Positions 18,578 through 46,012 of a DNA stretch of 60,862 nucleotides are shown here, piece by piece. A program made the translations under genes and the position numbers. The stretch lies in the NCBI GenBank assembly GCA_012521335.1, contig JAAYMM010000017.1:1-60862 (forward strand), written 5' to 3'. A model generated the notes under the pieces. It had not been told where the DNA came from and searched no databases. It saw only the letters and a program-made list of their open reading frames with translations. How positions within the stretch are numbered: position 1 is the stretch's first letter; each line of letters starts with the position of its first letter. This DNA is from Bacillota bacterium (GTDB lineage: Bacteria; Bacillota; Limnochordia; Darwinibacteriales; Darwinibacteriaceae).

Positions 18578-19468
18578 CTAAGCTATGCGGCGCAGAAGCC
18601 TCTGCACCAGGCGCTGCACCAACACCATGGTGATAAACAGGAGTACGGCCATGGCAGAGGCATAACCCATCTCATAGCGCACATAACCGTAATCGTTGAT
18701 GTGCTGCACGATAGTCCAAGTGGCCCAGTCCGTGGGGGCAGTGCCCGTGAGGGCCTGGATCTGGTCGGCAGCTGCGAAAGAGTTGGTAATACTGATAATG
18801 GCCCCGAACATCAAGTGGTGCTTCATCATGGGCAGGGTTATGTACCACAACTCCTGCCAGCGGTTGCGAATGCCGTCGATGGCTCCCGCTTCATAGTAGA
18901 TGGGGTCGATGCCCTGCAGGCCCGCGATAAAGGTTAAAAAGCTCACGCCCAGACTCATCCACAGGATCACCACGATCACAATGGGCATCATCCATCTAGG
19001 ATCGACGAGCCATTGGATGGGCTTGTCAATGATGCCCCAGTACAGCAGGATGCCGTTGATATACCCGTAGGCGTCGCCGCTGAACAGTACCGTCCAGATC
19101 ATGAAGGCATTGGCGGAAATGCTGGGCGCATAGAAGAGCAGCGTGAGTATGGCCCGAATCCTCGGTTTGAGCTCGTTGATCAGCCAGGCAAAGATGAAAC
19201 ACAGAGCATAGCTCAAGGGGCCCGTGATGGCTGCAAAGAGCAGGGTGTTCTTCACCGCGATGAGGAACACATCGTCTTCCAAGAACAGGGCCAGGTAGTT
19301 AGACCAACCCACCCAGCGGGGAGGCTCCACCATGTTGAAGTAGGTAAAGCTGAGCCCCATGGCAATAAGGATGGGCGCCAGCACGAAAACGGTGAACACC
19401 AGCAGGAACGGCGCCACAAACAGATATGAAACCCGCTTTTCCCTCAGTTCCAGCCAGAATGCCTTCAC
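18578..19468 (-). CDS. Carbohydrate ABC permease (MalF-like)
   Basis: YYEAGAIDGI motif; GTG 19468 overlaps the upstream TGA (GTGA). Confidence 0.92.
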   Translation of the reverse strand: MKAFWLELREKRVSYLFVAPFLLVFTVFVLAPILIAMGLSFTYFNMVEPPRWVGWSNYLALFLEDDVFLIAVKNTLLFAAITGPLSYALCFIFAWLINELKPRIRAILTLLFYAPSISANAFMIWTVLFSGDAYGYINGILLYWGIIDKPIQWLVDPRWMMPIVIVVILWMSLGVSFLTFIAGLQGIDPIYYEAGAIDGIRNRWQELWYITLPMMKHHLMFGAIISITNSFAAADQIQALTGTAPTDWATWTIVQHINDYGYVRYEMGYASAMAVLLFITMVLVQRLVQRLLRRIA

Positions 19469-22400: not shown

Positions 22401-22503
22401 TCTGGGCAGCTCTAGCTTGCTCCCCACAGCCTACCAGGGCAGCTAGGAACAGCAGGCCGCCGAGGATGAGAATGAACTCTGGTCGCAGGCGCCTGGCGAG
22501 CAT
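19465..22503 (-). CDS. Giant (1012 aa) extracellular solute-binding protein with N-terminal CBM-like beta-sandwich domains
   Basis: Lipobox-like LVGC; beta-rich repeats (WNVWVEEAGLYNIELCY, IAWQVDIPQDGYYKIAIK); C-terminal sugar SBP (WIGLGRDQAQIL, LFYRKDILDELG, AWEFLKWWTS). Confidence 0.85.
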   Translation of the reverse strand: MLARRLRPEFILILGGLLFLAALVGCGEQARAAQTAPTYREYLAAVPEPVFPEHAVPISAVSFRRATARTEVLPQYEGYPGLAVWVDEQGMIEWNVWVEEAGLYNIELCYYPAPGRSTAIERSIEVNGQLPFASAEYLVFRRVFGDAGPSRFDAAGNEIRPRQVEQPMWQTVFLSDAEGYEQNPFFFYFQRGWNTIRLHSRAEPMIIGHLRLCQAPVPQPYAQVRVQQPEAADVRGIFLQIEGEASSYRSSPSLFAVADPGDPTVVPYHHAETRLNSIGGHRWTEVGDWIAWQVDIPQDGYYKIAIKAKQNINRGDVSHRRLLIDGEVPFAEVAAIPFRFSSRYEMKQLGEEEQGEPYLFYLTKGRHEIRLEAVLGELGPLIEFAEELLYGLNGIYRSIIMITSPTPDPMRSYQLEQRVPQLLERIKAGADDLRLLAGEVQRITQHLGHSAALLDFARMLERMYEKPDAIPNLLQEYRDAIGQLGTWIMTSRRQPLQIDFLVVASPEQEMPRAQPTFWEVVVHEVRSFLSSFVRDYTTIHDISGDAASAEPAKRIKVWIGLGRDQAQILKQMIEDSFTPATGIHVDLELITYMDQLLVPATIAGNQPDVAIGAANMDLAFRGAVADLTQFPDFPEVAQRFKKSALLAFRFRDKVFALPEVQSFPILFYRKDILDELGLEIPQTWDDVLRILPELQNHHLEFGIWPSMYTFVQFLYQNGISLYKEDVIQTNLTAHAAIDIFAQMTNLFTQSGLPLQYNFINRFRMGEMPLAIANYAEFNTLSVFATELRGQWGMAPIPGTLQPDGTINRAVPVAQDALQIRTDQLGAVIMPSGTTGSIILEKSERKQEAWEFLKWWTSKETQVRFGRELEALIGASARYATANVEAMQELPWRVEEREQLNTQWDWVEGVPPVLGGYYVTRQFDWLFRAVVLHNAPVRESVLDYAREIDKEIARKRSEFGYETELEELDERWKELFWDHYTHVWRLDWDPPELGEEYRGILERYGLVEGGEGP

Positions 22504-22516
22504 GTTGCTTTCCCCC

Positions 22517-23644
22517 TTAGTCTTCCTGTGCAGTGCTGTACTGCCCTTGGTTCTCCTTCCAAGGTGTGGACGGATCCACTATGGCCCAGAAACTGGGCTT
22601 AGGATTGCCCTGCCGGTCAAAAAGCAGCGGATAATCAGGGCGGTTGGGGACCGGGAAGTGGTTCTTCCAGCTGTGGTTGTCCTTCACACCCCAGAAAGTC
22701 ACCCGTTCGATCACGTGAGAATAGTCCTTAAACAGCCTGAAGAGAGCGGCATAGCGGTTGGCCTGCTGCTCCTGCACAGCCTCTGGCAGACCGTTGGGAT
22801 AGCGGTTGCTGCGATCATTCCAAGTGTAGACGCTCACGTCCAGCTCGGTGATGTGCACCTTTACTCCCAGGGAGGAGTAAAGCTCAATGGCTTCACGGAT
22901 AGCCTCAATGCTGGGATGCTGGAGATCCCAGTGCCCCTGCATGCCGATGCCATCAACACGAATTCCCTTGTCCAAAAGCCCCTTGACCAAGGCGTAGATG
23001 GCATCCCGTTTGGGAGCGTCTGCAGCGTTATAATCGTTGTAATAGAGCTCCGCATCGGGATCCGCTTCCTGAGCAAACCGGAAGGCGTGTTCAATATAGT
23101 CATCGCCGATAATCCGCCGCCAGGGCGTATCCCGCAGCTCCCACTTCCCTGTGGCCGCATTGTATTCGATAGCCTCGTTAACCACATCCCAGCCCTTGAC
23201 CCTGCCTTTGAAGCGGCCCATTACGGTCTTGATGTGCTCCTCCATCCGGGCCAGCAGGGCCTCACGGCTCACTTCCCTGCCGTTCTCATCTTTGAACACC
23301 CAGTCTGGAGTCTGGTTGTGCCAGATCAGGGTATGCCCGATCACCTGCATGCCGTGTTCTTCAGCGTAGCGGATGAGGTTCTCGGCTTGGACAAAGCGGA
23401 ACTCGCCCGGCCTGGGCTGCAGCGCCTCCCACTTCATCATGTTCTCCGCTGTGACGGCATTGAAATGGTCCAGCAGCGGTTCGTCCAGCCAGTAGTCGGA
23501 CCGGGCCGCAAAACCGATCAGGAAATCATTGGCGTAAATCTCTTTCAGCATAGGTATCCCTCCAACTTCTGCCCTTGCCGGGCTGTAGAATGCACAAAGC
23601 ATCAGCAGCAGCAGCAAACTCCACACAGAAAACCTGGCCTTCAT
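22517..23644 (-). CDS. GH10 endo-1,4-beta-xylanase with Sec signal peptide
   Basis: TAENMMKW, GHTLIWH, acid/base WDVVNEA, nucleophile ITELDV, PLLFD. Confidence 0.96.
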   Translation of the reverse strand: MKARFSVWSLLLLLMLCAFYSPARAEVGGIPMLKEIYANDFLIGFAARSDYWLDEPLLDHFNAVTAENMMKWEALQPRPGEFRFVQAENLIRYAEEHGMQVIGHTLIWHNQTPDWVFKDENGREVSREALLARMEEHIKTVMGRFKGRVKGWDVVNEAIEYNAATGKWELRDTPWRRIIGDDYIEHAFRFAQEADPDAELYYNDYNAADAPKRDAIYALVKGLLDKGIRVDGIGMQGHWDLQHPSIEAIREAIELYSSLGVKVHITELDVSVYTWNDRSNRYPNGLPEAVQEQQANRYAALFRLFKDYSHVIERVTFWGVKDNHSWKNHFPVPNRPDYPLLFDRQGNPKPSFWAIVDPSTPWKENQGQYSTAQED

Positions 23645-23661
23645 CACACACCTCCCGTGTA

Positions 23662-24606
23662 TTACCCCACAATTCCCGTACGCTCCACGCTCTCCACGAA
23701 GTAGCGCTGCAGGAAGACGTAGAGGATCAAAAGGGGCAGGATCACCAAAAGCATTCCGGCATTGTTGATCAGAGAATAGAAGTGATCGTCGAGGAAACCG
23801 CTGGTTGACGCCAGCGCATCGGCCTCGTCGATGGCTTTGGCCACGCGCGAGGCCGCGCCTTCCAGGGCTTGGGGCAGGAAATTGCGCCCGGCCATAAAGG
23901 TGGTTACATACAGGTAGTCATTCCACTGCCAGACAAAGGAGAAGAGAAATGTGGTGATCAAGCCCGGGACAGCACCGGGAATCATCACCCTCCAAAAAGC
24001 GGCGAAGGGGCCCGCCCCATCGATGTAAGCCGCTTCTTCCAGCTCTTTGGGCATGCCACGGAAGAACTGGCGCATGATGAAGATGTACAAACCGCAGCGG
24101 AAACCCGTACCGGTTAAGCTCATGAGGATGAAAGGCCAGTAGGTGCCGATCAGGTTGAGCGAGCGGCCCTTGAGCAGACCCAAAAAGTCAAAGAAGCGGA
24201 AACTGAGATAGGTTGGGGTCATGATCAGCTGAGGCGGGATGATCAAGGTAAAGATGGCCAGGCCAAAGATGAGTTTGCTTCCGGGAAACCGAAAACGGGC
24301 CAGGCCGTAGCCCACCATGGAACAGGTAATCAGCTGCAGAGCGCTGGTTAAGGCCGTCAAAAACAGCGACCTCATGAAAGCACGGGGGTATTCCATATGC
24401 TCCCACACCAGCCTGAAGTTGCGCAGAGTTGGATTCCTGGGTATCCAGCGCACGGACTGATCATACAAGTCTTCGATGCTCATGAGCGCCGTGGACAGCC
24501 GATAGATCAGGGGCAGCAGGATCACGTAAGCGATGCCGATCAACAACACCGTGCGCAGCAGGGCCACCACGCGTTTTCTCCACTTTTCCTTGGCTGCTAG
24601 GCTCAT
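23662..24606 (-). CDS. Carbohydrate ABC permease (MalG-like)
   Basis: ELEEAAYIDGAG motif; ATG 24606 has the best SD spacing. Confidence 0.92.
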   Translation of the reverse strand: MSLAAKEKWRKRVVALLRTVLLIGIAYVILLPLIYRLSTALMSIEDLYDQSVRWIPRNPTLRNFRLVWEHMEYPRAFMRSLFLTALTSALQLITCSMVGYGLARFRFPGSKLIFGLAIFTLIIPPQLIMTPTYLSFRFFDFLGLLKGRSLNLIGTYWPFILMSLTGTGFRCGLYIFIMRQFFRGMPKELEEAAYIDGAGPFAAFWRVMIPGAVPGLITTFLFSFVWQWNDYLYVTTFMAGRNFLPQALEGAASRVAKAIDEADALASTSGFLDDHFYSLINNAGMLLVILPLLILYVFLQRYFVESVERTGIVG

Positions 24607-24621
24607 ACTCATACCTCCCTG

Positions 24622-25521
24622 CTAGACGTGATAAAACCCCCGGCGCGAGAGCAGGCCAAACACCGCGAGCAGCACCAGGCCGATGGCGGCAAAATAGATC
24701 ATGGCCATGGCCATGCTGACCCCGTAACCGGCACCGCGCAGCATGGTCTCCCGGATGAGATCCACCAACTTGTTGTTCATGGCTGTGAAAGAGTCGATGA
24801 TCGTGTAGATGATGTTCACTAGAATCAAGGGGCCCATCATGGGGAAGGTGATCAGCCAGAAACGCTCCCAGCCCGTGGCCCCCTCCACGCTGGCTGCTTC
24901 GTACACTTCCCTGGGGATGGACTGCAGCCCCGCGAGGAAGATCAAAATCTGCACGCCGGACGCCCGGATCACTGTGGGCAGGGCTTGGATGGCATCGGCG
25001 ACGTAATCCACCATGCCCGCGGGAAAGCGCGCCGCATCGAAAAAGCTCTGCACGGCAGCCCCGCCGAAAAAGGGAGCACTCTGCTGCAGATGGGTAACCA
25101 TGATCTGGGCGTAGTCTTTCATCTCCATCTTCAGCACCACACCGGCGCTGAGGATGACCGGCAGGAAAAACAGGGTCCTGACGAAAGTGCGCCCCCTAAA
25201 GTCGCTGTTGAGGATGGTAGCGGCAAAGAAGCTGAAACCGATGATCATGGGCAGCTCCGTTGCCAGTTTCACCAGCACTTCAGTGAACGTCTTGGAAAAC
25301 TCCGGATGCACCTGCAGGGCATAGCCATAATTTGCCCACCCTTTCCACTGGAGCTCAAAGGTTTCTGGTGTGAGCACTAGGTCGCTGAAGCTGATCACCA
25401 CTGCTTGATAGAAGGGGACGGCAAACAGGAAGATAAAGCCCACCAGGAAGGGGACGGTAAACAGAAACCCAACCAGCTTCTGCCGGTGCGCGAAGGCCAT
25501 GGGCCGTCTTTTCCTCTTCAT
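24622..25521 (-). CDS. Carbohydrate ABC permease (MalF-like)
   Basis: VYEAASVEGATGW motif. Confidence 0.92.
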   Translation of the reverse strand: MKRKRRPMAFAHRQKLVGFLFTVPFLVGFIFLFAVPFYQAVVISFSDLVLTPETFELQWKGWANYGYALQVHPEFSKTFTEVLVKLATELPMIIGFSFFAATILNSDFRGRTFVRTLFFLPVILSAGVVLKMEMKDYAQIMVTHLQQSAPFFGGAAVQSFFDAARFPAGMVDYVADAIQALPTVIRASGVQILIFLAGLQSIPREVYEAASVEGATGWERFWLITFPMMGPLILVNIIYTIIDSFTAMNNKLVDLIRETMLRGAGYGVSMAMAMIYFAAIGLVLLAVFGLLSRRGFYHV

Positions 25522-25522
25522 C

Positions 25523-28264
25523 TTACTTCCCCCCTTGCACAACCACGAAGCCCACTCCCGGAACCGCAACGTCCGCAGAGAGCTGATAGGGCTGCGCGGT
25601 GTAGTTCACCACTAGCTGAAGGCCGTTGTGGTAAGTCGTAGCACACACATTGGGGGCCAGCACCTGGTGATCGGTGATCACCAGGGGCCATTGGCTGCCC
25701 AAGACATCCCGCACCTGGTTGTAGACGGCGAGCAGTTCCCCCTTGATCTCCCGGAACTGCGTGGAGAGGAGGTAGTCGAAATCTGTGTTTTTGGTGGCAG
25801 ATGACGGTTCCCAGGAAAGGGCGAAATAAGGAATGGCTCCCGTCTCCAGCAGCTTGAGCAGGTAGAAAGCTCCCCTGTGGTCAGATAGGTTGAAAGGTTC
25901 TCCCGCATACTCCACCAACCCGCTCACCACGAGGGCATAGAACGGTACAGTCTGATGGAGAATGGCCTCGCCGCGGGCAAACAGGGGCGCTTCCACCAAC
26001 ACCTCGGCGTAGGGCAGCAGATAGGCGTTGCTGCCTGCGATCATGAGCCCTCTGTCCGCGGACAGCCTGCTCACTTCCTGAGCAATGATTTCTGCGGCCA
26101 TCACCCGGTCTACCAAGGTGGCGGGGTTAAGGCGGTAGTCGCCGTAGAGCAGCAGCCCCAAATCGCCCAGGGCCAGCCTGGAAAGGCCGTAGGAGTTGTA
26201 CTCCTTGAGGAACGCGTCGATCACCCCGGATAGCCGGGCCGGAGATAACAAGGGTATCTGCCGCTGGTCAATGGGCTGGTAGGTGGCAATGTGGAATGTG
26301 TTGAGCACAGCGGCACTGCGATCCAAGCCCCTGGGAGCATGGATAAATTGAACATAAAGGTCCAAAAGGTTGTTGCGGTGCACGCGCAGGAAGTCTACGC
26401 TGGGGTATAAGGCTACACCAAGCTCCTCCAGGGACCTGCTCAATTGCTGCCAGGTGCGCTGAGTGCCGGCGGCCTTCTCCAGAAGCGCTCCCCGGGGGTA
26501 AACATGGCGGATGCCGCCGCGCAGCCAACCCAGGTAGCGCACTTTGAGCTCGTCGACTCCCGCAGCCAGCAGATCATCCACGATCAGCCGCACCTGTTCG
26601 TGAGTGGTGAGCGGCTCCACCACGTTGGTGGGTATGCCCAATACGGGCTTGATCTGGTCAAACGATCCCAAAACATCCACCAGCAGAGGCAGCCCAGATC
26701 TGGATGGCAGCAGCGTTAAGCCGTGCTTCTCCATGAGATAATGCCGATAGGCTCTGGCCATGCCTGCATAACTGGTGTCTTCTTCTGGGAGGAACACGTA
26801 ACGCAGGACAATATCATTCTTGTTCAGACGGGCCTGGTACATCAGGATGGACAGCCGCCTCAGGTGGATGAGCTCACCCTCGGCCTCCATGTTCACCCGG
26901 GCTGAAGAACGGACCTCAAAGGATGCCCAGACTCTGTTGTAGGAATCGCGCATGCCGGGCAGCATGGCTTCAATCCGGGCCGAGGCATCACCCTCTTCAA
27001 TGATGGCCAGAAAGGCCTGTCCGTTGTTCACCATCCCGAAGACGGGAAGATAAATCTGCTCTTTGAGCATCGCGGAATATTCCCTCAGGGGCACAGCCGC
27101 GTAATCCTGACCGTACACCCTGCGGCTGTAAGGTTCCGCCAGCGGCGTGGGGCGGTTGAAGTAGATCAGTGCCCCCGAACCATCAGGGACAAACATGTAG
27201 CCTGCATCCTCTGCGCCGCCGGCGCCAAAATAGGGCAGCACACTGAGGGTGGTCAGGGGATAAGATACCTCCCGCTCATTCTTGGCATCCCACACCCGAT
27301 CAGGAAAAGTGATTTCCTCCGCAGGGATCCGCACAAGCAGGTCTCCTCCATCCAGGAGGTATTCCACCACAACTGTAAACTGGCGGAGATCGGGATAGGG
27401 CGGAGCGACATTGTAGTACTCATGATCGAAGGCCACGTCTTCCGGCGTGTAGCCAGCTGCCTTGACCAGTTGGATAGCATCCTCTATGTCCCACTGCATC
27501 ACATTCCATTTCAAAAGCAGGGTGGGAGTATTGCGCAGGGCCACGATCTCTTCCGGCTTTACATCCCCCAACGAAGCGTACTGCTTGTGATCCCTGATCA
27601 ACACCAGGTACTCTTGGAACAGACGCCTTTTGTCTGCGGTGCGGAACCGGGGCTCATCGACCTTGATGCCCCAACCGTCCAAAAGGCGGTCGAAGTCCAC
27701 GCCCATAATGCTCAAGTCTTCACCGCTGTCATAGCCCTCTTCTAAACTAAAGAGGCCGTACATGTCGCGCAGAAAGGCGCGATCCTTTTCCTTGGCGATG
27801 TTGGCCAGGATCAGCTCGTTGAACCGCTCTTCGGAAATGATGGTAGGCAGGTAATCCCGATCCTGCCAAGTCTTGCCGAACTTGTATTCTACCCGCAGCC
27901 CTTGCTCCAAGGGGATGATCGTGTACTGCCCGTGGGCCACGCTGTCGTTGAAGCTGTCCATCTGCTGCTGTTGGTTGGCCGCGTAGTAGGTAATCACCAG
28001 CTGCGAGCTCAACCGCGCCTTAGCGGCGCCCCTGGCCAGCGTCTCCTGCTGATCTCTCCCGGGAGGATTGGAGAACCAGAGCGCACCCGTCTCCTTGTGC
28101 AGCAGGGCGATCTCAGCGGTATCCGGCTTGAAGTACAGCTCCAGGAACTCGTTTTCTGCTCCCTTTTGGAAACCGGGAGGCAGATCGGCAGCGCCTGCTG
28201 TGGCTGTCCAGGCGGCCAGGGCCACCAGGAGCGCAGCCAACAGGACAAGCAGTCTCGCACGCAT
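25523..28264 (-). CDS. Large secreted uncharacterised protein, DUF5696-like (913 aa)
   Basis: Signal peptide; segments YMFVPDGSGALIYFN, VYGQD, LPVFG, RYLGWLRGG recalled as typical of proteins in this conserved ABC neighbourhood. Confidence 0.7.
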   Translation of the reverse strand: MRARLLVLLAALLVALAAWTATAGAADLPPGFQKGAENEFLELYFKPDTAEIALLHKETGALWFSNPPGRDQQETLARGAAKARLSSQLVITYYAANQQQQMDSFNDSVAHGQYTIIPLEQGLRVEYKFGKTWQDRDYLPTIISEERFNELILANIAKEKDRAFLRDMYGLFSLEEGYDSGEDLSIMGVDFDRLLDGWGIKVDEPRFRTADKRRLFQEYLVLIRDHKQYASLGDVKPEEIVALRNTPTLLLKWNVMQWDIEDAIQLVKAAGYTPEDVAFDHEYYNVAPPYPDLRQFTVVVEYLLDGGDLLVRIPAEEITFPDRVWDAKNEREVSYPLTTLSVLPYFGAGGAEDAGYMFVPDGSGALIYFNRPTPLAEPYSRRVYGQDYAAVPLREYSAMLKEQIYLPVFGMVNNGQAFLAIIEEGDASARIEAMLPGMRDSYNRVWASFEVRSSARVNMEAEGELIHLRRLSILMYQARLNKNDIVLRYVFLPEEDTSYAGMARAYRHYLMEKHGLTLLPSRSGLPLLVDVLGSFDQIKPVLGIPTNVVEPLTTHEQVRLIVDDLLAAGVDELKVRYLGWLRGGIRHVYPRGALLEKAAGTQRTWQQLSRSLEELGVALYPSVDFLRVHRNNLLDLYVQFIHAPRGLDRSAAVLNTFHIATYQPIDQRQIPLLSPARLSGVIDAFLKEYNSYGLSRLALGDLGLLLYGDYRLNPATLVDRVMAAEIIAQEVSRLSADRGLMIAGSNAYLLPYAEVLVEAPLFARGEAILHQTVPFYALVVSGLVEYAGEPFNLSDHRGAFYLLKLLETGAIPYFALSWEPSSATKNTDFDYLLSTQFREIKGELLAVYNQVRDVLGSQWPLVITDHQVLAPNVCATTYHNGLQLVVNYTAQPYQLSADVAVPGVGFVVVQGGK

Positions 28265-28295: not shown

Positions 28296-30455
28296 CTAAG
28301 TACGATGGATGGCCTCAGTGATCAACTGGCGGACGAACAGAACCACCTGTTCGGTCAGGGCGATAAACAACAACCCCAAAAAGAGGGCGAAGGCCATGCC
28401 CAACAGGGTAGAAATGCAGGTGAAGATGGTCTTGCTAAAGTCATACTCATGGGTGACCATGGTGGCGCCTACTACCAAAAGCACAACGGCCCAGCCCAAC
28501 CCCAAGGACATGAGCATGTAATAGAAAGCTCCTTCTTCGGCGATGAGGAAGTTGCTGATCATGGTCAAGGGCACAACGGTCAGGATGACAGGAATGAGGG
28601 CAAAGGCACTGGCGATGTAGACATCCCGCAGCGTTCCCTTGCCTTCCATCAAGGTGGTCAGAGCCCAGTTGACAAAGGTCCAGAGCAGGAAGGGCAGCAC
28701 AACACTGCCGATCTCCACCAAGAGATTGATCTTACTCAGATCTGCCCTGTTGAAGATGAAGCCCGTGTACTGGCGAGCAAAGACAAAGGTAAGCACAACC
28801 AGGGCTAAGATAATGGTGGCGGCCAAGGGTGTCCCCCTCTGTTCTTTCTTCAACCTTTCGAAACCGTCAAAGGGATGGAAGATGATGTATAACCCGAAGC
28901 GCAGGCTGTTTAGCGTCTTTCGGCCAAACCGGGCCCACTTCGCCTGGGCTGCGGCTGCCTCCTGCGCCGCGGGCAGGCTGGGCCTGCCAGGCCTGAACCT
29001 GCGGAAGAGGAAAAACGCGGCGAGCAAAACCGCGCCTGAGGCGAAGGCTTGGGGGAAGTGGGCATAGACCAGTTCTTTTCGATACAGCTCGAACGCCTCA
29101 GAATACTCAGCACGGTTGTTGCCCAGCCTGAAGTTTTCCATAGCCTGGGCGTATTCGCCCCTTCTAAGCAGCGCCCGGCCGATGCCAGTGTAGGCCACAT
29201 CGAAGTTGGAGTTGAGCACCAGAAGCTGGCCCCAGATTCTTTCAGCCAGGTGGTAGTCGCCCCGCTCGTAAGCATCCAGGGCAGCCCAGATGAGGAGCGC
29301 ATAGTCGGTGGGCTCGAAAACCACGATACCTCCACGCTGGGCATCCAGGACAAGCATCGTTTTGCCCAGATGGTCCAGGGCCACGGGACTGGCCACCTGG
29401 CCGTGCCCTGAACCCCAGTAGCCAAAATCGTAAAGAAGGTTGCCGTTGTTGTCGTAGGTGAATACCCGCCCCCGATTGCCGTCGAGCACGCTATACACTC
29501 CGTAGGGTTGTACCGTGATATCCACCAACATGGAGGATGTGCGCCGGGTGGCTGTGGACCAGCGGTCGGGGAACTCCACATCACCCATGGGATCGGCAAA
29601 GCCCAATCGCCTCAGCAAGTCTTGGCCCTTGGCGTTAATTTTACGGACCTTGATGGCGATTCCGCCTTGATCTTCTTCCTTATCCTCAGCATGGCTGGTG
29701 GCGTAGATGAAACCCTCCGAGTCCAAATCGAAGTTGGTATACTCTGTGGGCAGAAAAGCCCGGATCCTCTGGCGCTGTTCCTTGGTGGCGAAGCGGCTCC
29801 ACAGGTATTCGGCCAAACTGGGCGTAACGCGGGGCGCGCCCAAAAAGCCGCGAAACTGACCGTCGGCACTAAAGCTGATGAATCCTTCGTATAAGTCTTG
29901 GGCGATCACATAAATCCGGCCGTGCTGATCCACGCCCACCTTCAGGGGCCGGTAGTTGAAATTGGCGGGAAGGATCCCCTCAAACTGTGCCTGGGGAGCA
30001 GGCACGATCCGGTTGAGAGTCCCGTCTGGATTGAGGTGTACAATGCGGCCGTTGCCCGTATCGGCAACGTAAATGTGGCCCTCGGGAGTGACAAAAAGGC
30101 CCATGGGAGAGTTGAAGCTGTCGTCATCGCCAAAACTGGAGATCACGCGCACCAGCTGGAAACTGCCATCGGCCACAACCAGGCGGTTGTTGCCCGTATC
30201 GGCGATATAAATCTCGCCCTGCGCGCTGACAAACAGGTCATTCGGATTCTTCAGCGGCCCCACCTGCAGATCGTCCCCCAGGATGATCCGAGACGGGAGA
30301 TAGGCCTGGGGGCTGGGTACCGCCTTCTGCCAGAAATCATACAAATAGCTGGTGTATGGAACAGTGAAGTTGGTAATTGAGGTGCCTTGGGCGTAAGCAG
30401 AGCAGCAAGCCGCCAGCACGGCCACCAGCACTGCACACACCTTGCGCCACATCAT
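28296..30455 (-). CDS. NHL-repeat / TPR / Yip1-domain membrane protein (719 aa)
   Basis: Signal peptide, repeated YIADTGNNR / YVADTGNGR (NHL), TPR-like helix pair (AYTGIGRALLRRGEYAQAM), C-terminal multi-TM Yip1-like domain (HPFDGFERLK...). Confidence 0.8.
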   Translation of the reverse strand: MMWRKVCAVLVAVLAACCSAYAQGTSITNFTVPYTSYLYDFWQKAVPSPQAYLPSRIILGDDLQVGPLKNPNDLFVSAQGEIYIADTGNNRLVVADGSFQLVRVISSFGDDDSFNSPMGLFVTPEGHIYVADTGNGRIVHLNPDGTLNRIVPAPQAQFEGILPANFNYRPLKVGVDQHGRIYVIAQDLYEGFISFSADGQFRGFLGAPRVTPSLAEYLWSRFATKEQRQRIRAFLPTEYTNFDLDSEGFIYATSHAEDKEEDQGGIAIKVRKINAKGQDLLRRLGFADPMGDVEFPDRWSTATRRTSSMLVDITVQPYGVYSVLDGNRGRVFTYDNNGNLLYDFGYWGSGHGQVASPVALDHLGKTMLVLDAQRGGIVVFEPTDYALLIWAALDAYERGDYHLAERIWGQLLVLNSNFDVAYTGIGRALLRRGEYAQAMENFRLGNNRAEYSEAFELYRKELVYAHFPQAFASGAVLLAAFFLFRRFRPGRPSLPAAQEAAAAQAKWARFGRKTLNSLRFGLYIIFHPFDGFERLKKEQRGTPLAATIILALVVLTFVFARQYTGFIFNRADLSKINLLVEIGSVVLPFLLWTFVNWALTTLMEGKGTLRDVYIASAFALIPVILTVVPLTMISNFLIAEEGAFYYMLMSLGLGWAVVLLVVGATMVTHEYDFSKTIFTCISTLLGMAFALFLGLLFIALTEQVVLFVRQLITEAIHRT

Positions 30456-30477: not shown

Positions 30478-30507
30478 AGGTCTGTGAGCCTTGAGGCTCA
30501 CAGACCT
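30478..30507. other. Intercistronic 13-bp hairpin without U-tract
   Basis: AGGTCTGTGAGCC-TTGA-GGCTCACAGACCT. Confidence 0.75.
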
Positions 30508-30523: not shown

Positions 30524-31831
30524 TTACTGCTTGAGGTACTCGTCGATCATGGCCTGGCCTTGCGGCTTGAACTCGTTGACGATGGTGGAAGCCACTCCGC
30601 CGCCCTTGATACCCTCGATCACGCCGCCATAGGGCGTCTGATTCTCGTACCAGGCACCAAGGAAGTTGTGGTAGTAGGCGGCGTCGCCGTTCACCTCGGC
30701 AAAGGCCCTCTGGAATACTTGATACGAGGTGCGGTCATAGGCACGATCGCGGATCATATCTTCCATGGCCTCGTAGTAGTCCTCCAGCGGGAAGAGGAAG
30801 TTGTCCAGAGCGATCAGGCCCAGGGGATAGGCGGCATTTCTGGGTATGAAGATGGCATCGGCCACCCCAGGTGCGAAGACATAGTCATCGACATCATCGC
30901 CCATGGGCAGGGGCAGGATTCCGTGCCTGAATTCGTACTAGCTGGGGTTAATCTGCCAGAACGGCATGATGCCGATGGCTGTGCGGCCGGTGATGAACTC
31001 CCTCATCTGCCAGTCACCGTAGGAAATGCCCAGCACGTTTTCCCACTCAGCCAGTTTGCGCAGGGCGTTGATGGCCTGAGGCTCATCCAATGCATAATAG
31101 ACTCTGCCGTCATCGCCCAGCCTGGTGATGGCGCCTCCGTTGCTGAAGATCATGAACATGGGATCGATGAAAGCGAGCGCCCACTGGTCCACAACCCCAT
31201 CACCATCTGTATCACGGGTGACCTGGCGGCCGATCTCCTCCACGATCTTCCAGTTCCATTCATTGTTCTCATAGAGTTCGTAAGGATCCGGCAGGCCTTC
31301 CCGCTCGAACAGGTCGAGATTGACCACAGCAAAAGGCGCATGGCCGAAGTCGTCGGGAACACCTACGGAGAAGTGGAAGACATGCCCGTCATAGGACAGG
31401 CGCTCATTCTTCTCGCGCGTAATTGGTGAGAGCTGTTCAAAGTACTCGGGAGGCAGAATCTCGTCCACTGGGTAGAACGCGCCGCGGGTAGCCAGGGTGA
31501 AGAAATCCCTGTGGGGCAGGCGCCAGATGTCATACTGCGAGTCGCCCGACAGATAGCGGTTGAGAGCCAGTTGTCCGACTTCATCCCAACCTGCCGTGAT
31601 CAGCTGGATGTCACCGATATTGAACAGCTTCTTAGCCTCTTCCAGCCGTCCCGCGCGTGCTCCGCCTTCGTAGAAAGCGGATAAGTTGTCGAAGTGTGCT
31701 ACATAGGTTACTGTTGCGCCTTGGAAGTCAATGGGTCCGAAGTCCATGCGGTCAGATTCATAAGCCAATACGACGGGCGATATTGCCGCTGCTACGAGCA
31801 GCACAGCAGTAAGCAATCCAATCTTTCTCAT
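30524..31831 (-). pseudogene. Sugar ABC solute-binding protein interrupted by one in-frame TAG (30938-30940)
   Basis: ORFs 30938..31831 and 30524..30904 share a frame: ...FWQINPS*YEFRHGILPLPMGDD...; joined length 435 codons; Sec signal peptide. Confidence 0.8.
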
Positions 31832-31912: not shown

Positions 31913-33139
31913 TCATTCCCCTGTGGTGTGATCTGCCCAGCGATCATTGGGCAGCAGCGGATACCAGCCTGGTCTTCTGGAATCTCGGTCGTATGGGTAG
32001 TTGCCCAGCTCTTTGTACAGCTCAGCATACTGCTGTACTTTATCCCGATCGAGCCTAACTCCCAACCCCGGTTTATCAGGCACTTGGATCTTGCCATCAA
32101 CGATCCGGAACTTGCCTCCTTGCACGATATCATCCCGCAGGTGGTGATAGTGGGCATCGATGGCAAAGGATAGACTGGGCAGCACGGCACCAAGGTGCAG
32201 CATGGTAGCTAACTGAATGCCCAGTTCACCTGAGGAGTGCACTGCCACGCCCAGCTGAAATGTCTCACATACATTGGCCGCTTTAATGCAGGCTCGAATT
32301 CCGCCCCAGAACGTGGTGTCCAGCAGGATCACATCAACGGCAGGATGGAGGACATTCTGCGCCAGCTGCTCGAAGTTGACCACAACGGTGTTGGTGGCCA
32401 GGGGTATGCGCGTGTTCTCCCGCACCCGCCGCATTCCGTTTAAGCCCCAGGTGGGGTCCTCTAGATAATCATTGCGCAGATCCTCAATTTGCCGGGCAAA
32501 CCAGATGCTCTCTTCCACACTCCAGCAGGCATTGGGGTCGATCCGGAAGGCATCCCCGGGAAACTCCGCTGCTAAGGCGCGGTAAGCTTCCAGCTCGTAT
32601 TCGGGCCTGAATACGCCCGCTTTCAGTTTGTGGGTACGGAAACCATAGCTCTCCTTGAGGTGCTGGGTGTGGGCGAGGAGTTGGTCTATGGTGCGCACCT
32701 CATCGTAAAGCCCATCTTCACTGCGGTAGCGGAAGAAAAGGTAGCTGGCTAGGGGGATCTCATCCCGCAGTTTGCCGCCTAAGAGCTTGTGCACAGGCAG
32801 CCCCAGTTTTTGGCCGATAATGTCTAGGCAGGCAAACTCAATGGCCGCCATGAGCTGGGTGCGGTTGTTGTACAAGCTGGCCGTGGGATTGCAGATTTTG
32901 AAGCGCAGTTCTTCCAAAGCAAAGGGATCGTGGCCCACCAAGTAGGGCTTGAGGCCCAGAAACTGCAGCTCTGCGCTCTCGCCGCCGCCTCCCATCTCGC
33001 CCAAGCCGATGATCCCTTCATCCGTTTCCACCTCAACGATGGTGCGGACAAATCGTCCCCAGTGTTCACCATTGCTGTGCCGCAGGGGTGCTTCGAGCGG
33101 TACTGTAACTGTGGTCGGCCGAATGTCCACGATTTTCAT
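31913..33139 (-). CDS. Enolase-superfamily acid-sugar dehydratase, glucarate-dehydratase-like subgroup
   Basis: HKLKAG (KxK), RIDPN, YLEDP, LATN, AVHS: the D/E/N metal-ligand pattern of the GlucD subgroup; ATGA overlap with the GntR stop. Confidence 0.88.
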
Positions 33140-33870
33140 AACGACCATCCTTTCGCTGTGCCGACGCGTGACGCTTGGACAAAATAGCCGGGATACTGGG
33201 CCAGCAGCTCATCCTCTTCCACCATGATCATGCGCAGGTGGTCGGTCATGATTTTTCTCGCCTCTTGGGCCTTTCCCTCTCTTAAGGCTTGGAAGACGGC
33301 TTGATGCTGCCTGAGAATCTGTTCCCAATTCGAGTCATGGGATAAACGGAGTACTCTCACTCGGTAAAAGTCTAGATTCAGCTGCTTAACCATGTCATAG
33401 GTCAGCTGCTTGCCGCAGGCGCGGAAAATAGCGGCGTGAAACTCGTCATCTAGGGCCAGCATGCGCAGGTAATCCTGGTTCTGGCAGCACTGCTCTTGCG
33501 CAGCCAGATTGTACTCCAGCTCCCGGATGTGATCGTCAGATAGACGCCCAGCCGCTTCCTCAACCACTGCCGTTTCCACAATCTCCCGTACCCAACGCCC
33601 TTCTTCCATCGACTCCAAGTTGATTAAAGACACATAGGTGCCGCGCTGAGGGTAGATCTCCACTAGACCATCTTGATGGAGGTGAACAAATACTTCGCGC
33701 ACGGGTGTGCGGCTCACTTTGAACTCCTCAGAAATCTCCTGCTCGGACATCTTCGTGCCCGGCTTCAAATGCAGATGAAGAATACTATGGCGCAGGGTGT
33801 TGTACACGAACTCCTTTGCCGACGCCCGCCTGCGCGGGGGGCGCCGCGCCGCAAATCTAGGTATGCTCAT
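33136..33870 (-). CDS. GntR-family regulator with FCD domain (RspR/YdfH-like)
   Basis: w[21 protein letters not shown]...YPQRGTYV; FCD motif DDEFH...H...H. Confidence 0.92.
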
Positions 33871-33885: not shown

Positions 33886-33940
33886 ATACTACCATGGTAG
33901 TATGCTTTAATATTAAATAACATTTTCCTAAAAGTCAACC
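33886..33940 (-). promoter_or_regulatory. sigmaA promoter + 18-bp palindromic operator for the GntR operon
   Basis: TTGACT-N17-TAATAT, 6 nt, then the perfect palindrome ATACTACCATGGTAGTAT (33886-33903). Confidence 0.85.
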
Positions 33941-33955: not shown

Positions 33956-36900
33956 TCAATCTCCAGGCGGTTTGCTCGGAGCAACCGGCAGAAACTGCAG
34001 CCAGGCCAGATCGAACCGGGAGCCTGGCAGGAAGATCAGCCGCACCTGCGCCCTACCCTGAACAGGCTCAAGGTCAAACACCCGCTCCGTATAGTCCTCC
34101 GCGTAGGCAAACTCCACCTGCCGGCGGTCTTCCCTTTCATCCTGGATCAGGCTGAGCTGCACCGGGGCTATGGCCAAAGGGGTGCGTCCGCAGAGAACCA
34201 GCCCTGCCGCGCCTTCAGGCCCGAAGTCAAGTTCGCCAAAATCTATGGTGACGTTGTTGCCGATCCCTTCAAGGCAGTCTCCCTTAAAGGCAAACTGGTC
34301 GCCGTAGATGCGGCTGCAGTCGGCCGCGGGGATCCTGGCAAAGGCCCTCCGCTGCTGCACGAATCTGAAGCCTTTGATGTGCATCTTGTCCTGGGTGACC
34401 ATCCAGAGCGAAGTCACGCCCTTTAAGCGCTTAGCGAGCTGGTAAGTCTCACTCTGGTACACATTCCATCTTGTCGGCTTTTGGTAGACCGTGTCCAACA
34501 AAAGCACGCTGCCCTTTTCCCCGGGCCGTCCTTCCCACAGCTGCAGGGGATAGGGGCGACTGGTCAGGGCGAAAATTGGGATGGTGATGGTATCCGAACC
34601 ATCGGGGCCGAAATCCAGGGCGGTAAAGCCCACCTGCGTTTCCGCTCCCCTGGCCGTGGCCACCCCCCTCTCGTTGCCCGGGCCCACTTCCCCCACCACA
34701 GCATCATAAAGGCTTCCCGCTGTGAACTGGTAAGGATCTTTGCACAGCGTACCCAGGCCCACCGCCTCAAACTCCAGTTCAGCAAAGAGCCGGACAGCAG
34801 CAGTACCATTGGTGCTCAGGCAGCGCAGGCGAAACTGGCCGTCCCCGAGCGCCTGCAGGCGTACCCAATCCTCGCCGGCCTCCACGATCTTGGCCAGAGG
34901 TGAGTACGCTCCCCCAGGGTGCACCACCCGCCAGTCAAGGCTGCGGTAGGAGGTGTCCGGGGGATACAGCTTAGCCTGCACCGTAAGCTCCTTGCGGTCT
35001 GGCGTGAATACCCGGCTTCCCTCGGCCCGCAGCTCAATCTTGCGCAGGGGCACCTCTCCCAGGCGGCCCGTGTGGATTGGCCGCGGCTGGTTGCGCTCCT
35101 GGGCCGCGACTCCTTGGGGCGGCCCGCCAGCAGTGGGCCGGCTGAAGAAGTGCGCTTCCGCCTTGGGCAGGCTGGGGGAGACAACCTCCAGTTTGATTTC
35201 TCCCGGTTCCCGAATGGCGGCGATTATGGCGCGCAGCTTGCCGCTGAACAGCCTCCTGCTGATTCCCTTGAAGGAATCGTAATCGGTGCTGTCTCCGTTA
35301 TCCAGGCCCACCAGACGCCCAGCGCCGCTCACGAACACCTCCACCCGGTTTTGGGCGTTTTCCACCGGATTGCCTCGGGCATCTTCCATGGAGATTTCCA
35401 CGAAGATCAGGTCTGAGCCATCAGCCTGCAGGTCGGTTTTGTCAGCTTGGATCCTGATCCTGGCCGGATCCCCAAAGGAACGCCGCACCGCGCAGGCCAA
35501 AACGGTGCCGTCCTCATCTAGGGCTGTAGCCTTCAACTCGCCGGGTTCAAAGGGTACCTTCCAGCTGGTGACGTAGAGGTGCTCAGGCTCACGCAGGTTC
35601 CTCCATCCCACCTCCTTACCATTGAGCTCCAGCTTGACCAGGGGCGCGTTGGAGGCCACCCGCACATCGATGATCTGGCCGGGACTGAAATCCCAGTACG
35701 GGTAGAGGTGCACCATGGGGTGTGTCTTATAATCAGTCCACGCAGCTTGGTAGATATAGTAAGAATCCTTGGGAAAAGATGCAGTATCTAACTGGCCGAA
35801 GAACGAGTTCTTGCTGTGGTAAGGGGTGGGCTCGCCTAAGTAGTCAAAGCCCGTCCAGATGAACTGGCCCAGAGAATAGGCAGCCTTCCGCTCCACATCC
35901 AGGCAGGCTTGGGTGCTGGCGGCCCCCCAGCTTACGGGACTGTTGCCCAGGGCTGAGCACTGGCCATCATCCTCGCCCAGGATAGTCACCTCCAATGGGA
36001 AGTGGTAAATACCCCTGCTCTGCACCACTGAGCTGGTTTCGCTGCCGTAAAGAACCCAATTGGGGTGTTCTGCCCGGTGGCTGGCATACAGATGGGCTCC
36101 GTAATTGTAACCCACGGCATCCAGCAGCTCTGCGCAGCGCTGGGTGTTTTCCCACTGCAGGTAGTTGGAACCAAAGGTGAGCAAGCCGTTACCCCGCGGG
36201 TCGTGGCGGCGCACCAGGGAGATGAGCTGACGGGTCAGTTCCAGTCCCCGTTCACCCAATTGGGTGTCTAGAATCTCATTGCCGATACTCCACATCAGCA
36301 GGCTGGGATGATTGCGGTCTCGGCGGATCCAGCTGGCTACATCGCGCTCCACCCACTCTGGAAAGAAGCGGGCGTAATCGTAGGTGGTTTTGGGTAGTTC
36401 CCAAACGTCGAAGGCCTCACTGATCACCAGAAAGCCCAGCTCATCCGCGAGTTCCATAAACCCCTTCGCCGGCACGCTGTGCCCAGTACGGATGGCATTC
36501 ACTCCCATGGCCTTCAGCAATTGGAAGCGCTTTCTCAGGGCATTTTTGTTGAAGGCTGCGCCCAAAGCCCCCAGGTCATGGTGCTCGCAGACACCGTGGA
36601 GCTTGAGCCTGCTGCCGTTGAGGACCAATCCCTGATCCGGGCTTAAGGCCACTTCCTTGAAACCAATCTTCTGCAACGTGCTGTCCAGCACCTGTCCCGT
36701 CCGGGCATCAAGCAGCTCAGTAAGGAACGTGTACAGCTTGGGCCGCTGCGGGCTCCAGCGCTCCACTCCCTGCACAATCAGCTCCTGAGTGTTTGTCACT
36801 AGGCCCTCAGCGCCATCCAGCCGCGCTTGGGATTGGGCTTTCACCGTTTGCCCCTGGTAGATGGTGTGCACTACCGTCAGGGGCGTTCCTGAACCTGCCT

Positions 36901-37408
36901 GCACTTCACATTCCACGCTCACCTGCCAGGAGTCTGCCTGCCCCAAAGGTCGGCTGTGGACGTAAAGGCCATCCGTAACGAGATAATCCAAGCCTCTCAT
37001 CTTCAGCCATACGTTGCGGTAGATGCCTGCTCCAGAATACCAGCGGCTGTTGGGCGCTTGGTGCACCACCTTAACTAGGACTTCATTGCGGCCTGGCCTG
37101 AGGGCATGGGTGATTTCGTGTTCAAACGAGGTGTAGCCGTTTTTCCAGTCTCCGATCCAGGTACCGTTGACCAACAGGGAAGAGTCCATGTAAACGCCTT
37201 CGAAATAGAGGAAGATGCGCCCAGTCCCACTATAATCCACATGACGCCTGTACCAGCCGATGCCGTCTGCATAGAGGTTTTTGCAGTCGTAAATCAGCCA
37301 GTCATGGGGCAGATCGACGCTGCTAAACTCCAGCCCAGCAGGGCCGCTCTGATCTAGTGGCCCGAGGGCAAACTGCCAACCGTCATTGAGCAAAATGGTC
37401 TTCCCCAT
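33956..37408 (-). CDS. GH2 glycoside hydrolase (1150 aa) with C-terminal accessory domains
   Basis: GVCEHHDLGALG, NAIRTGH, RDRNHPS, acid/base WSIGNE, YGSET, WTGFDYLGEPTPY. Confidence 0.92.
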   Translation of the reverse strand: MGKTILLNDGWQFALGPLDQSGPAGLEFSSVDLPHDWLIYDCKNLYADGIGWYRRHVDYSGTGRIFLYFEGVYMDSSLLVNGTWIGDWKNGYTSFEHEITHALRPGRNEVLVKVVHQAPNSRWYSGAGIYRNVWLKMRGLDYLVTDGLYVHSRPLGQADSWQVSVECEVQAGSGTPLTVVHTIYQGQTVKAQSQARLDGAEGLVTNTQELIVQGVERWSPQRPKLYTFLTELLDARTGQVLDSTLQKIGFKEVALSPDQGLVLNGSRLKLHGVCEHHDLGALGAAFNKNALRKRFQLLKAMGVNAIRTGHSVPAKGFMELADELGFLVISEAFDVWELPKTTYDYARFFPEWVERDVASWIRRDRNHPSLLMWSIGNEILDTQLGERGLELTRQLISLVRRHDPRGNGLLTFGSNYLQWENTQRCAELLDAVGYNYGAHLYASHRAEHPNWVLYGSETSSVVQSRGIYHFPLEVTILGEDDGQCSALGNSPVSWGAASTQACLDVERKAAYSLGQFIWTGFDYLGEPTPYHSKNSFFGQLDTASFPKDSYYIYQAAWTDYKTHPMVHLYPYWDFSPGQIIDVRVASNAPLVKLELNGKEVGWRNLREPEHLYVTSWKVPFEPGELKATALDEDGTVLACAVRRSFGDPARIRIQADKTDLQADGSDLIFVEISMEDARGNPVENAQNRVEVFVSGAGRLVGLDNGDSTDYDSFKGISRRLFSGKLRAIIAAIREPGEIKLEVVSPSLPKAEAHFFSRPTAGGPPQGVAAQERNQPRPIHTGRLGEVPLRKIELRAEGSRVFTPDRKELTVQAKLYPPDTSYRSLDWRVVHPGGAYSPLAKIVEAGEDWVRLQALGDGQFRLRCLSTNGTAAVRLFAELEFEAVGLGTLCKDPYQFTAGSLYDAVVGEVGPGNERGVATARGAETQVGFTALDFGPDGSDTITIPIFALTSRPYPLQLWEGRPGEKGSVLLLDTVYQKPTRWNVYQSETYQLAKRLKGVTSLWMVTQDKMHIKGFRFVQQRRAFARIPAADCSRIYGDQFAFKGDCLEGIGNNVTIDFGELDFGPEGAAGLVLCGRTPLAIAPVQLSLIQDEREDRRQVEFAYAEDYTERVFDLEPVQGRAQVRLIFLPGSRFDLAWLQFLPVAPSKPPGD

Positions 37409-37497: not shown

Positions 37498-37553
37498 GGT
37501 TGACTTTTATCAAAATGTAAGATATTATCCAAGTATACTACCATGGTAGTATA
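37498..37553 (+). promoter_or_regulatory. sigmaA promoter + palindromic operator for the third ABC operon
   Basis: TTGACT (37500-37505), N17, TATTAT (37523-37528), then TATACTACCATGGTAGTATA (37534-37553). Confidence 0.88.
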
Positions 37554-45234: not shown

Positions 45235-45266
45235 AAAGCACGGGCCTCAGTTGGCCCGTGCTTTTT
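45234..45266. terminator. Bidirectional terminator overlapping the eda stop
   Basis: AAAAGCACGGGCC-TCAGTT-GGCCCGTGCTTTT. Confidence 0.85.
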
Positions 45267-45894
45267 GCACTGCTTGCACGTATTGGCCGGCCAGCTCAGT
45301 GAGGGCTGGCCAGTCTTTTTTGGCCACAATGTCCTTGCTCACCAGGGCAGAACCAACGCCCACAAACACTGCTCCGGCCTTGAGGAAATCCCCCAGGTTG
45401 TCCAGGTTTACTCCGCCGGTGGGGGTGAGTTTCACCTGAGGCAGCGGGCCGCGCACATCTCGGAAGAACTCCGGCCCCAGTTTGGTGGCGGGGAAAACCT
45501 TAACAACATCGGCCCCGGCTTCCCAGGCTGTGAGTATTTCCGTGGGCGTGAACGCGCCAGGAATCACGATCTTGCCGTAGCGCTTGCACATGGCGATGAG
45601 TTCTTTGTTGAGAACCGGGGAGACGATGAAATCGGCCCCCGCCAGCATAGCCACCCGGGCCGTCTCGGGGTCTAATACCGAGCCGGCGCCGATGACCGCC
45701 TTACCTTTCAGCACCTGCGCAGCCCTGTAGATGGCTTCAGTGGCACCGGGGGAAGTCATGGTAATCTCCACCGCGATCACCCCGCCGGCCACCAAGGCTT
45801 CACAGATGGAGACCAGCTCATCTCCGCTCTGGGTGCGGATTACCGCCACGATTCCGCACTCTTCGATCCGCTTCAACTGCTCCTCCTTGGTCAT
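45247..45894 (-). CDS. eda: KDPG/KHG aldolase
   Basis: VAVIR, VEITMTSP, GAGSVLD, KVFPA, PTGGV; ATG 45894 has the best SD spacing. Confidence 0.93.
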   Translation of the reverse strand: MTKEEQLKRIEECGIVAVIRTQSGDELVSICEALVAGGVIAVEITMTSPGATEAIYRAAQVLKGKAVIGAGSVLDPETARVAMLAGADFIVSPVLNKELIAMCKRYGKIVIPGAFTPTEILTAWEAGADVVKVFPATKLGPEFFRDVRGPLPQVKLTPTGGVNLDNLGDFLKAGAVFVGVGSALVSKDIVAKKDWPALTELAGQYVQAVQKARAN

Positions 45895-46012
45895 GTGCAA
45901 AACCTCCCGTACTATGGCTTACAACACTCCGCTGTCTTCCTTAGGTTTTTCTCCACTGCTACCCGGCAAATCCTGCCCTGGCGGCAGCAGGTGGCATTTT
46001 TTCCCGAGAATG

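Follow-up and report, generated by a model that had tools for sequence, protein, structure and literature searches.

A GlucD-subgroup enolase-superfamily protein of xylan-utilisation loci as a proposed replacement of UxuA in glucuronate catabolism

The stretch from position 1 to 60,862 of contig JAAYMM010000017.1 of a Limnochordia bacterium (Bacillota; assembly GCA_012521335.1), referred to here as the window, encodes on its minus strand (33139..31913) a 408-amino-acid enolase-superfamily protein with the N-terminus MKIVDI, which together with its orthologues we designate ENO. An in-frame ATG lies upstream of the start codon, at position 33148, and is not used by the orthologues. The start codon overlaps, as ATGA at positions 33139-33136, the stop codon of a gene encoding a GntR/FCD-family regulator (33136..33870, minus strand; Pfam GntR and FCD domains), a coupling already seen in the first-pass annotation of this sequence. 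The same annotation had placed ENO first in a transporter/xylanase transcript; the gene is instead the second of a 16-kb co-directional transporter/GH10 run headed by gntR, with the promoter and operator upstream of gntR and twelve co-directional genes, separated by short gaps, extending downstream of ENO to position 17694. A terminator scan stayed at chance level, with 19 candidates where 14.6 are expected, and does not define transcript ends, so that we infer co-transcription of the run only from the spacing of its genes.

Upstream of gntR, a consensus scan identified a sigma-70-like promoter (TTGACT-17-TAATAT; 33910..33938, minus strand), which is a consensus match only. Just downstream of its -10 box lies a perfect 18-bp palindrome, ATACTACCATGGTAGTAT (33886..33903). 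A second, identical copy (37535..37552) follows the -10 box of the promoter (37500-37528, plus strand) of the neighbouring lplABC-like ABC-transporter operon (37575-41083, plus strand), which is divergent from the gene for a GalB-like GH2 enzyme of 1150 amino acids located upstream of the run (33956..37408, minus strand; family searches). The two exact copies in the window compare with 0 expected by chance, and both sites are kept at the same two positions in the related contigs L089 and L092. The palindrome is the probable operator of the FCD-GntR regulator. Its small regulon would consist of the lplABC-like transporter and the run from gntR and ENO through the transporter genes to GH10, perhaps with the GH2 gene as well.

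The window further encodes a GH67 alpha-glucuronidase (13408..15495, minus strand; Pfam GH67 N, M and C domains, E = 4e-153) and a 2-keto-3-deoxy-6-phosphogluconate (KDPG)/KHG aldolase (Eda; 45247..45900, minus strand; Pfam E = 3e-46), the latter located 12 kb away on the opposite side of the ENO run from GH67 and 41-48% identical to the Eda genes that adjoin ENO in other loci. Homologue searches of the window identified no UxaC, UxuA, UxuB, KduI or KdgK-like PfkB kinase, nor the Bh0493-type isomerase and short-chain dehydrogenase/reductase (SDR) that accompany ENO elsewhere, in agreement with the earlier observation that GH67 and eda are present and that uxaC, uxuA, uxuB and kdgK are not. The close relative L089 keeps the architecture of the window, and L092 presents the arrangement GH2-SDR-...-GntR-ENO-GH43-GH3-GH67.

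ENO contains the capping and barrel domains of the enolase superfamily (Pfam MR_MLE_N, E = 1.6e-10; MR_MLE_C, E = 4.9e-54). Alignment with the E. coli glucarate dehydratase GudD (b2787; PDB 1ec7; 34% identity) mapped every one of the KxK, DPN, E, N and H residues that had been read as a GlucD pattern in the first-pass annotation. The KxK motif at strand 2 corresponds to K171/K173 (GudD K205/K207) and the DPN motif to D201-P202-N203 (GudD D235/N237), while E227, N250, D274 and H301 align with GudD E260, N289, D313 and H339, and D328/H330, Y133 and H26 with GudD D366/H368, Y150 and H32. The predicted metal ligands D201, E227 and N250 are invariant across 9 sequences and constitute the three carboxylate/amide ligands at strands 3, 4 and 5 that define the superfamily; the GlucD subgroup is recognised by the KxK motif, by a His-Asp dyad at strands 7/6 and by Asn in the role of the third metal ligand, all of which ENO has. 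Since these motifs form part of an alignment between homologues (a PDB search gave E = 1e-43 for GlucD structures), their pattern is not due to chance. A structure predicted with AlphaFold, of only moderate confidence (pLDDT 71, pTM 0.75) and uninformative on ligands, matched enolase-superfamily and GlucD-subgroup structures in Foldseek with a TM-score of about 0.8, and GlucD itself with about 0.83. By fold and catalytic residues, ENO is thus a GlucD-subgroup enolase-superfamily enzyme and, by analogy, it probably shares the stereochemical course of GlucD at the reacting end of the substrate.

Close homologs of ENO are found in Limnochordia metagenome-assembled genomes (88-89% identity) and in Alicyclobacillus, Paenibacillus, Ammoniphilus, Kribbella and Pyrinomonadaceae (74-78%). 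A scan of one genome per species identified at least 593 carrier species, a lower bound, and the best 80 of these, all 70-76% identical to ENO, are distributed across the Acidobacteriota, Actinomycetota, Alphaproteobacteria, Bacillota, Gemmatimonadota and Chloroflexota. Identity above 70% in at least 593 species genomes from at least six phyla suggests that the family is probably isofunctional. The proteins of the scanned carriers bear no informative name, some sources label the family as glucarate dehydratase, and we found no literature on the family or on its PDB relatives. ENO represents a new family, with no function assigned, among the well-known acid-sugar dehydratases of the enolase superfamily. 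Its closest solved relatives (E = 1e-77 to 1e-62, 33-41% identity, TM-score 0.80-0.85) are Enzyme Function Initiative orphans of the GlucD subgroup (4it1, Pfl01_3283; 3vc5/4dhg, Tbis_1083; 3vdg, MSMEG_6132; 3va8; and 4dye/2oqh), which have no assigned function. Their identity is too low for orthologues of ENO, among which it exceeds 70%.

We examined the neighbourhoods of 83 ENO loci, extending 10 kb to either side of each, by clustering their open reading frames and annotating the recurrent clusters. Reading frames were chosen by homology weighting, and the SDR of locus L004, mis-called in this manner, is present in the public gene call. SDRs were identified in 38 of the 83 loci, 27 of them within two genes of ENO, and TonB-dependent receptors (TBDRs) in 27. 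BD-FAE esterases (22 loci), an uncharacterised six-hairpin glycosidase (20), GH67 (19), GntR (17) and GH3 (15) enzymes or regulators also recur, the six-hairpin glycosidase and GH67 always within two genes of ENO and the GntR-ENO pairing of the window being seen again in related loci. The remaining recurrent clusters correspond to xylose isomerase (12 loci), a Bh0493-type uronate isomerase (11; PDB 2q08, E = 1e-133), a FAH-family hydrolase closest to L-2,4-diketo-3-deoxyrhamnonate hydrolase (11), a zinc-dependent alcohol dehydrogenase (Zn-ADH; 7), CE15 glucuronoyl esterase (6), PfkB kinase (6) and Eda (4), with KdgK and/or Eda present in 6 loci. A search of these loci with E. coli queries returned UxuA in only two (L030 and L060) and no UxaC, UxuB, UxaA or KduI within the ±10 kb regions.

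The linkage of ENO to GH67 spans the Acidobacteriota, Gemmatimonadota and Bacillota. With an estimated one or two GH67 genes among the thousands of a genome, chance falls far short of explaining 19 adjacencies spread over three phyla, which disposes of the concern that orthologues might show no association with GH67. Pyrinomonadaceae loci present the order ROK-TBDR-BD-FAE-GH67-ENO-isomerase-GH3-GH10-XylA, L022, L073 and similar loci the order GH67-ENO-isomerase, Paenibacillus alkalitolerans AraC/GH67-ENO-SDR and L045 ZnADH-ENO-SDR-GH67, and the GH67-ENO-SDR or SDR-ENO-GH67 triplets of L004, L036, L037 and L045 lack the isomerase. L031 and L035 carry ROK-TBDR-...-ENO-Bh0493-type isomerase-SDR-ExuT-like MFS transporter, and L031 also encodes a PfkB kinase farther downstream. 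In the Bacillota, L002 is a module of GntR/FCD regulator, SDR, acid-sugar MFS transporter and ENO, Alicyclobacillus shows GntR-SDR-MFS-ENO, and the Virgibacillus locus L014 contains PfkB kinase...Ldh_2-TRAP-ZnADH-ENO-SDR-Eda. In L041 the order is six-hairpin GH-BD-FAE-ENO-PfkB kinase-KDPG aldolase, the last three being direct neighbours, and 11 Acidobacteriota loci share TBDR-GH38-like-six-hairpin GH-BD-FAE-ENO-(DUF4185)-FAH-SDR. The partner SDRs score equally as gluconate 5-dehydrogenase, KduD, mannonate oxidoreductase and glucose 1-dehydrogenase and split into context-specific clades. They consequently do not fix the substrate of ENO, and their clades fit a conserved central step with variable partners.

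Together, these results indicate that ENO most likely replaces UxuA in a glucuronate catabolism tied to xylan use. More specifically, we assign a probability of about one half to ENO dehydrating D-mannonate, and possibly also D-gluconate, to 2-keto-3-deoxy-D-gluconate (KDG). In the mechanism that we propose, Mg2+-dependent ENO would take the proton alpha to the carboxylate through the His301-Asp274 dyad and/or Lys173 and would then expel the beta substituent, releasing a 2-keto-3-deoxy acid; D-mannonate is the most likely substrate, D-gluconate, which is epimeric to it at C2, a possible second one, and KDG would be the product. Imported aldouronates would be cut by GH67, the source of (4-O-methyl)glucuronate, and an isomerase and a reductase, whose genes would lie outside the window, would convert glucuronate to fructuronate and then to D-mannonate. 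ENO would form KDG, and KdgK and Eda would complete the pathway. The effector of the FCD-GntR, which is translated together with ENO, is probably an acid of this pathway, and through ATACTACCATGGTAGTAT the regulator may control the ENO run and the neighbouring ABC-transporter operon.

Several features of the neighbourhoods favour this assignment. The isomerase adjacent to ENO is closely related to Bh0493, a protein deposited in the PDB under the name uronate isomerase, and UxuA is almost always missing from ENO loci; the genes expected around a D-mannonate dehydratase are those found, with isomerase in 11, SDR in 38, PfkB kinase in 6, Eda in 4 and UxuA in 2 of the 83 loci. Full pathway sets with ENO as the only dehydratase occur in L031 and L014, and the arrangements of L035, L022, L073 and similar loci are counted among the textbook sets of this kind. 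L014 has the composition of the proven L-gulonate pathway, which comprises a TRAP transporter, GulD, UxuB, UxuA, KdgK and KdgA (PMC5788505), with ENO in the position of UxuA. In L041, ENO directly precedes the kinase and the aldolase, as expected if its product is KDG. Moreover, the GntR-transporter-SDR-ENO arrangement parallels the E. coli uxuR-gntP-uxuA-uxuB genes, in which gntP encodes a fructuronate transporter and which are mirrored by the regulator, SDR, MFS transporter and ENO of L002. The C2-C4 configuration of D-mannonate equals the C5-C3 configuration of D-glucarate, the substrate of GlucD. Given the proximity of ENO to Bh0493-type isomerases, SDRs, hexuronate and acid-sugar transporters, PfkB kinase and KDPG aldolase, and the rarity of UxuA, the new catabolic route put forward in the first-pass annotation is not required, and a dehydratase step in the ordinary isomerase pathway is simpler.

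A role shared with UxuA would be a case of convergence. ENO is predicted to catalyse the reaction of UxuA at the same place in the pathway, but UxuA has an unrelated, xylose-isomerase-like fold, and Pfam detected no UxuA domain (PF03786) in ENO. With the ManD enzymes, for which the convergence would have occurred within the superfamily, ENO likewise shares the predicted reaction, and the Zn-ADH, SDR and TRAP context of some ENO loci resembles that of L-gulonate/L-idonate pathways. They form a different subgroup, however, whose catalytic arrangement differs from the KxK/His-Asp arrangement of ENO; the score of ENO against the ManD model NF043051 (91 bits) falls well short of the cut-off (550). 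D-mannonate and D-gluconate dehydratases of the ManD subgroup were reportedly described by Wichelecki et al. in 2014.

Other observations weigh against a D-mannonate dehydratase. L030 and L060 carry both UxuA and ENO. In about 20 loci, comprising those with GH38-like/six-hairpin GH/BD-FAE/ENO/FAH/SDR genes and the Kribbella loci with SDR-ENO-six-hairpin GH, there is neither an isomerase nor a second reductase, leaving the source of the hexonate unexplained. The adjacency of GH67 and ENO, within two genes in 19 of 19 GH67 loci, fits direct use of the GH67 product equally well. Furthermore, the window itself encodes no isomerase, SDR or kinase, so that the pathway is assembled from other genomes, and the literature contains no enzyme assay for any member of the family. 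Finally, which of isomerase, reductase and dehydratase acts first, second or third cannot be read from gene content. Glucuronate, D-fructuronate, D-mannonate and L-gulonate have their carboxylate in common and do not differ in configuration at the carbons corresponding to C5, C4 and C3 of glucuronic acid (GlcA), where all match the reacting end of D-glucarate. The three enzymes, with the SDR reducing the C2 carbonyl (C5 of mannonate), can be read in three orders, each with KDG as the end product.

The alternatives differ in how well they accommodate these data. Some sources annotate ENO as glucarate dehydratase, and the catalytic residues of the GlucD subgroup are kept, yet it is very improbable that the enzyme serves the oxidative uronate/aldarate pathway as an ordinary dehydratase of D-glucarate (or galactarate). 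ENO scores 174.5 bits against the glucarate dehydratase equivalog TIGR03247, far below its cut-off of 828.7. At 34% identity to GudD, it shows three capping-loop deletions (the 20s, 100s and 150s loops), has Ser in place of GudD N341 and does not conserve the positions of GudD T103 and R422, which we take to be the ligands of the distal carboxylate of glucarate. Moreover, the genomic context of GlucD is aldarate and that of ENO is hexuronate and xylan: GarD, GarK and GarR were absent from the 83 loci, where there were two weak GarL-like matches only, KdgD and Udh not having been searched for. On family score and context, we therefore rejected a true GlucD, the identity that the first-pass annotation had named as fatal to its own proposal. 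Nor do we give much credence to a 1,1-proton-transfer epimerase acting beside the carboxylate, for instance between D-mannonate and D-gluconate or between glucuronate and iduronate. The two-base active site (KxK and His-Asp dyad) that such an enzyme would use is retained, and GlucD itself epimerises D-glucarate and L-idarate, but under this reading, which is barely credible, no dehydratase would remain in L031, L014 and loci like them.

Two further schemes retain a dehydratase and change its substrate. In the one closest to the first-pass annotation, ENO would be a direct uronate dehydratase or methanol-lyase, removing H5 and the C4-OH or C4-OMe group from GlcA or 4-O-methyl-GlcA to yield 4-deoxy-L-threo-5-hexosulose uronate (DKI). 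An aldose-ketose step of the KduI type would follow, carried out by the Bh0493-like isomerase, and a KduD-like SDR would lead to KDG, and in other loci the SDR and FAH hydrolase would cleave a 2,4-diketo acid to pyruvate and tartronate semialdehyde. GH67 lies close to ENO wherever it is present, CE15 glucuronoyl esterase occurs in 6 loci, the triplets without isomerase can be accommodated, the partner SDRs score like KduD/gluconate 5-dehydrogenase, and the ENO-FAH-SDR loci are self-sufficient only if the substrate is a uronate. Glucuronate also matches the configuration of glucarate at all four stereocentres. There is precedent in the enolase-superfamily D-galacturonate dehydratases of Geobacillus and Microscilla (Groninger-Poe 2014, as cited in PMC6353982), which are reported to convert the free uronate to 5-keto-4-deoxyuronate; their substrate, however, is galacturonate, and the characterised enzymes are absent from the best 60 of the 168 PDB matches of ENO. 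KduI was found at none of the 83 loci, the TRAP-ZnADH-ENO-SDR-Eda-kinase loci are left unexplained, and L041, with ENO followed by kinase and aldolase, would need two further enzymes. The adjacent isomerase also argues against this scheme by its closeness to Bh0493 (E = 1e-133), a uronate isomerase by its PDB name. Bh0493 is said to act on glucuronate and galacturonate themselves. Direct dehydration of (methyl)glucuronate, as initially proposed, hence draws on the GH67 linkage and the galacturonate precedent, but a new route is not needed to explain the loci, and we regard it as unlikely.

Less probable still is that ENO acts in the same pathway on a different intermediate. From D-fructuronate it would form 2,5-diketo-3-deoxygluconate, to be reduced to KDG by the KduD-like SDR, and from L-gulonate it would form 2-keto-3-deoxy-L-gulonate, to be re-routed by Zn-ADH and SDR. 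The same neighbourhood data apply, and whichever order holds, reduction by the SDR would take place at one and the same carbon. L-gulonate corresponds exactly to glucarate in its stereochemistry, and Zn-ADH and SDR partners are found in 7 loci. These orders are nonetheless less parsimonious than the textbook one, from which they are inseparable by sequence, and we know of no precedent for ENO-type dehydration of D-fructuronate or L-gulonate, which counts against them.

Replacement of UxuA by ENO, and each of the step orders above, places the same substituent at the point of elimination. The methyl ether of 4-O-methylglucuronate is at C4, and C4 of GlcA is C3 of mannonate, so that the leaving group of ENO is the GlcA-C4 substituent whatever the order. 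The chemistry originally suggested for the enzyme, loss of the GlcA-C5 proton and C4 substituent, thus holds in every order, whereas (methyl)glucuronate as the direct substrate is not favoured. Elimination of methanol, with methoxide replacing hydroxide, is reasonable as candidate chemistry for ENO. It is possible, though on balance doubtful, that ENO removes the 4-O-methyl ether in this way, from 4-O-methyl-glucuronate or 3-O-methyl-D-mannonate, as methanol and a 2-keto-3-deoxy acid. If so, this would explain why ENO, rather than UxuA, is tied to GH67 and CE15 in the xylan loci of several phyla, and it would constitute an oxygen- and cofactor-independent demethylation route for methylglucuronoxylan. 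A search of open-access text found no paper on the fate of the 4-O-methyl group of glucuronic acid. Methanol release, if true, would reveal the bacterial means of shedding the 4-O-methyl group carried by most of the glucuronic acid of hardwood xylan, and would provide a simple enzyme for full conversion of methylglucuronoxylan. The bacteria that carry ENO, a family without assigned function, live in soil, compost and sediment. A functional assignment would put right many annotations, including those that read glucarate dehydratase in some sources, would close the apparent gap of a missing UxuA in the glucuronate catabolism of the Acidobacteriota, Limnochordia and others, and would make ENO a marker gene for glucuronoxylan use.

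The ENO loci show additional features. The six-hairpin (MGH1-like) glycosidase, of 670-750 amino acids, is found in 20 loci of Acidobacteriota and Actinomycetota (for instance L074:11224-13359), including L009, L019, L024, L033, L034, L041, L046-L048, L051, L059, L061, L062, L064, L070, L074, L079 and L081, and is usually accompanied by a BD-FAE esterase, a GH38-like protein and DUF4185. A 741-amino-acid neighbour had no Pfam, NCBIfam or PDB sequence match, its homologs being named MGH1-like/six-hairpin glycosidase only. The loci with this glycosidase look like glycan-utilisation loci that feed the same dehydratase. Two modules occur directly after ENO, FAH hydrolase and SDR in 11 loci (L051:11264-14258, L048:12621-13508 and 9 similar loci) and PfkB kinase and KDPG aldolase in L041 (11289-13252), which suggests that one 2-keto-3-deoxy acid is broken down without phosphorylation in the former loci and with it in the latter. 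The UxuA genes of L030 (4730-5848) and L060 (6188-7234) each adjoin a second TRAP transporter, suggesting parallel regulons for different acid sugars. DUF2264 (PF10022) proteins, presumably members of GH154, are encoded in L035 (18169-20121), L031 and L036. The GH154 family has recently been shown to comprise beta-D-glucuronate dehydratases acting on oligosaccharide ends (PMC12269599), with a fold unrelated to that of ENO.

Within the window, the gene following ENO encodes a solute-binding protein of 435 codons (30524..31831, minus strand; Pfam SBP_bac_1) with an in-frame TAG at codon 298 (30938-30940). The L089 orthologue, 89% identical, is intact at 435 amino acids and has GAG (Glu) at this position, and the TAG is either a nonsense mutation inactivating the binding protein or a sequencing error. 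Between the stop codon of this gene and the next lies a perfect 13-bp stem with a 4-nt loop and no U tract (30478..30507, minus strand), read from the sequence; instead of terminating transcription, it may serve the stability or processing of the mRNA. It is followed on the minus strand by genes for an NHL/SGL-repeat protein of 719 amino acids with a C-terminal Yip1 membrane domain (28296..30455; Pfam) and a DUF5696 protein of 913 amino acids (25523..28264; Pfam E = 2e-166). This pair (25523-30455) is located inside the sugar ABC-transporter run and keeps the same order in L089. The run continues on the same strand with two ABC permeases (23662..25569), one identified by its BPD_transp_1 domain and the other by clustering with permeases of related loci, and a GH10 endoxylanase (22517..23647; Pfam E = 5e-104), and ends with a 1012-amino-acid solute-binding fusion protein and two permeases (17694..22503). 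The fusion protein (19465-22503, minus strand) has an N-terminal half of about 550 amino acids without family match and a C-terminal half that matches SBP_bac_1/8. Beyond the run, a GH3 beta-xylosidase/glucosidase-like enzyme is encoded on the plus strand (15432..17687; Pfam).

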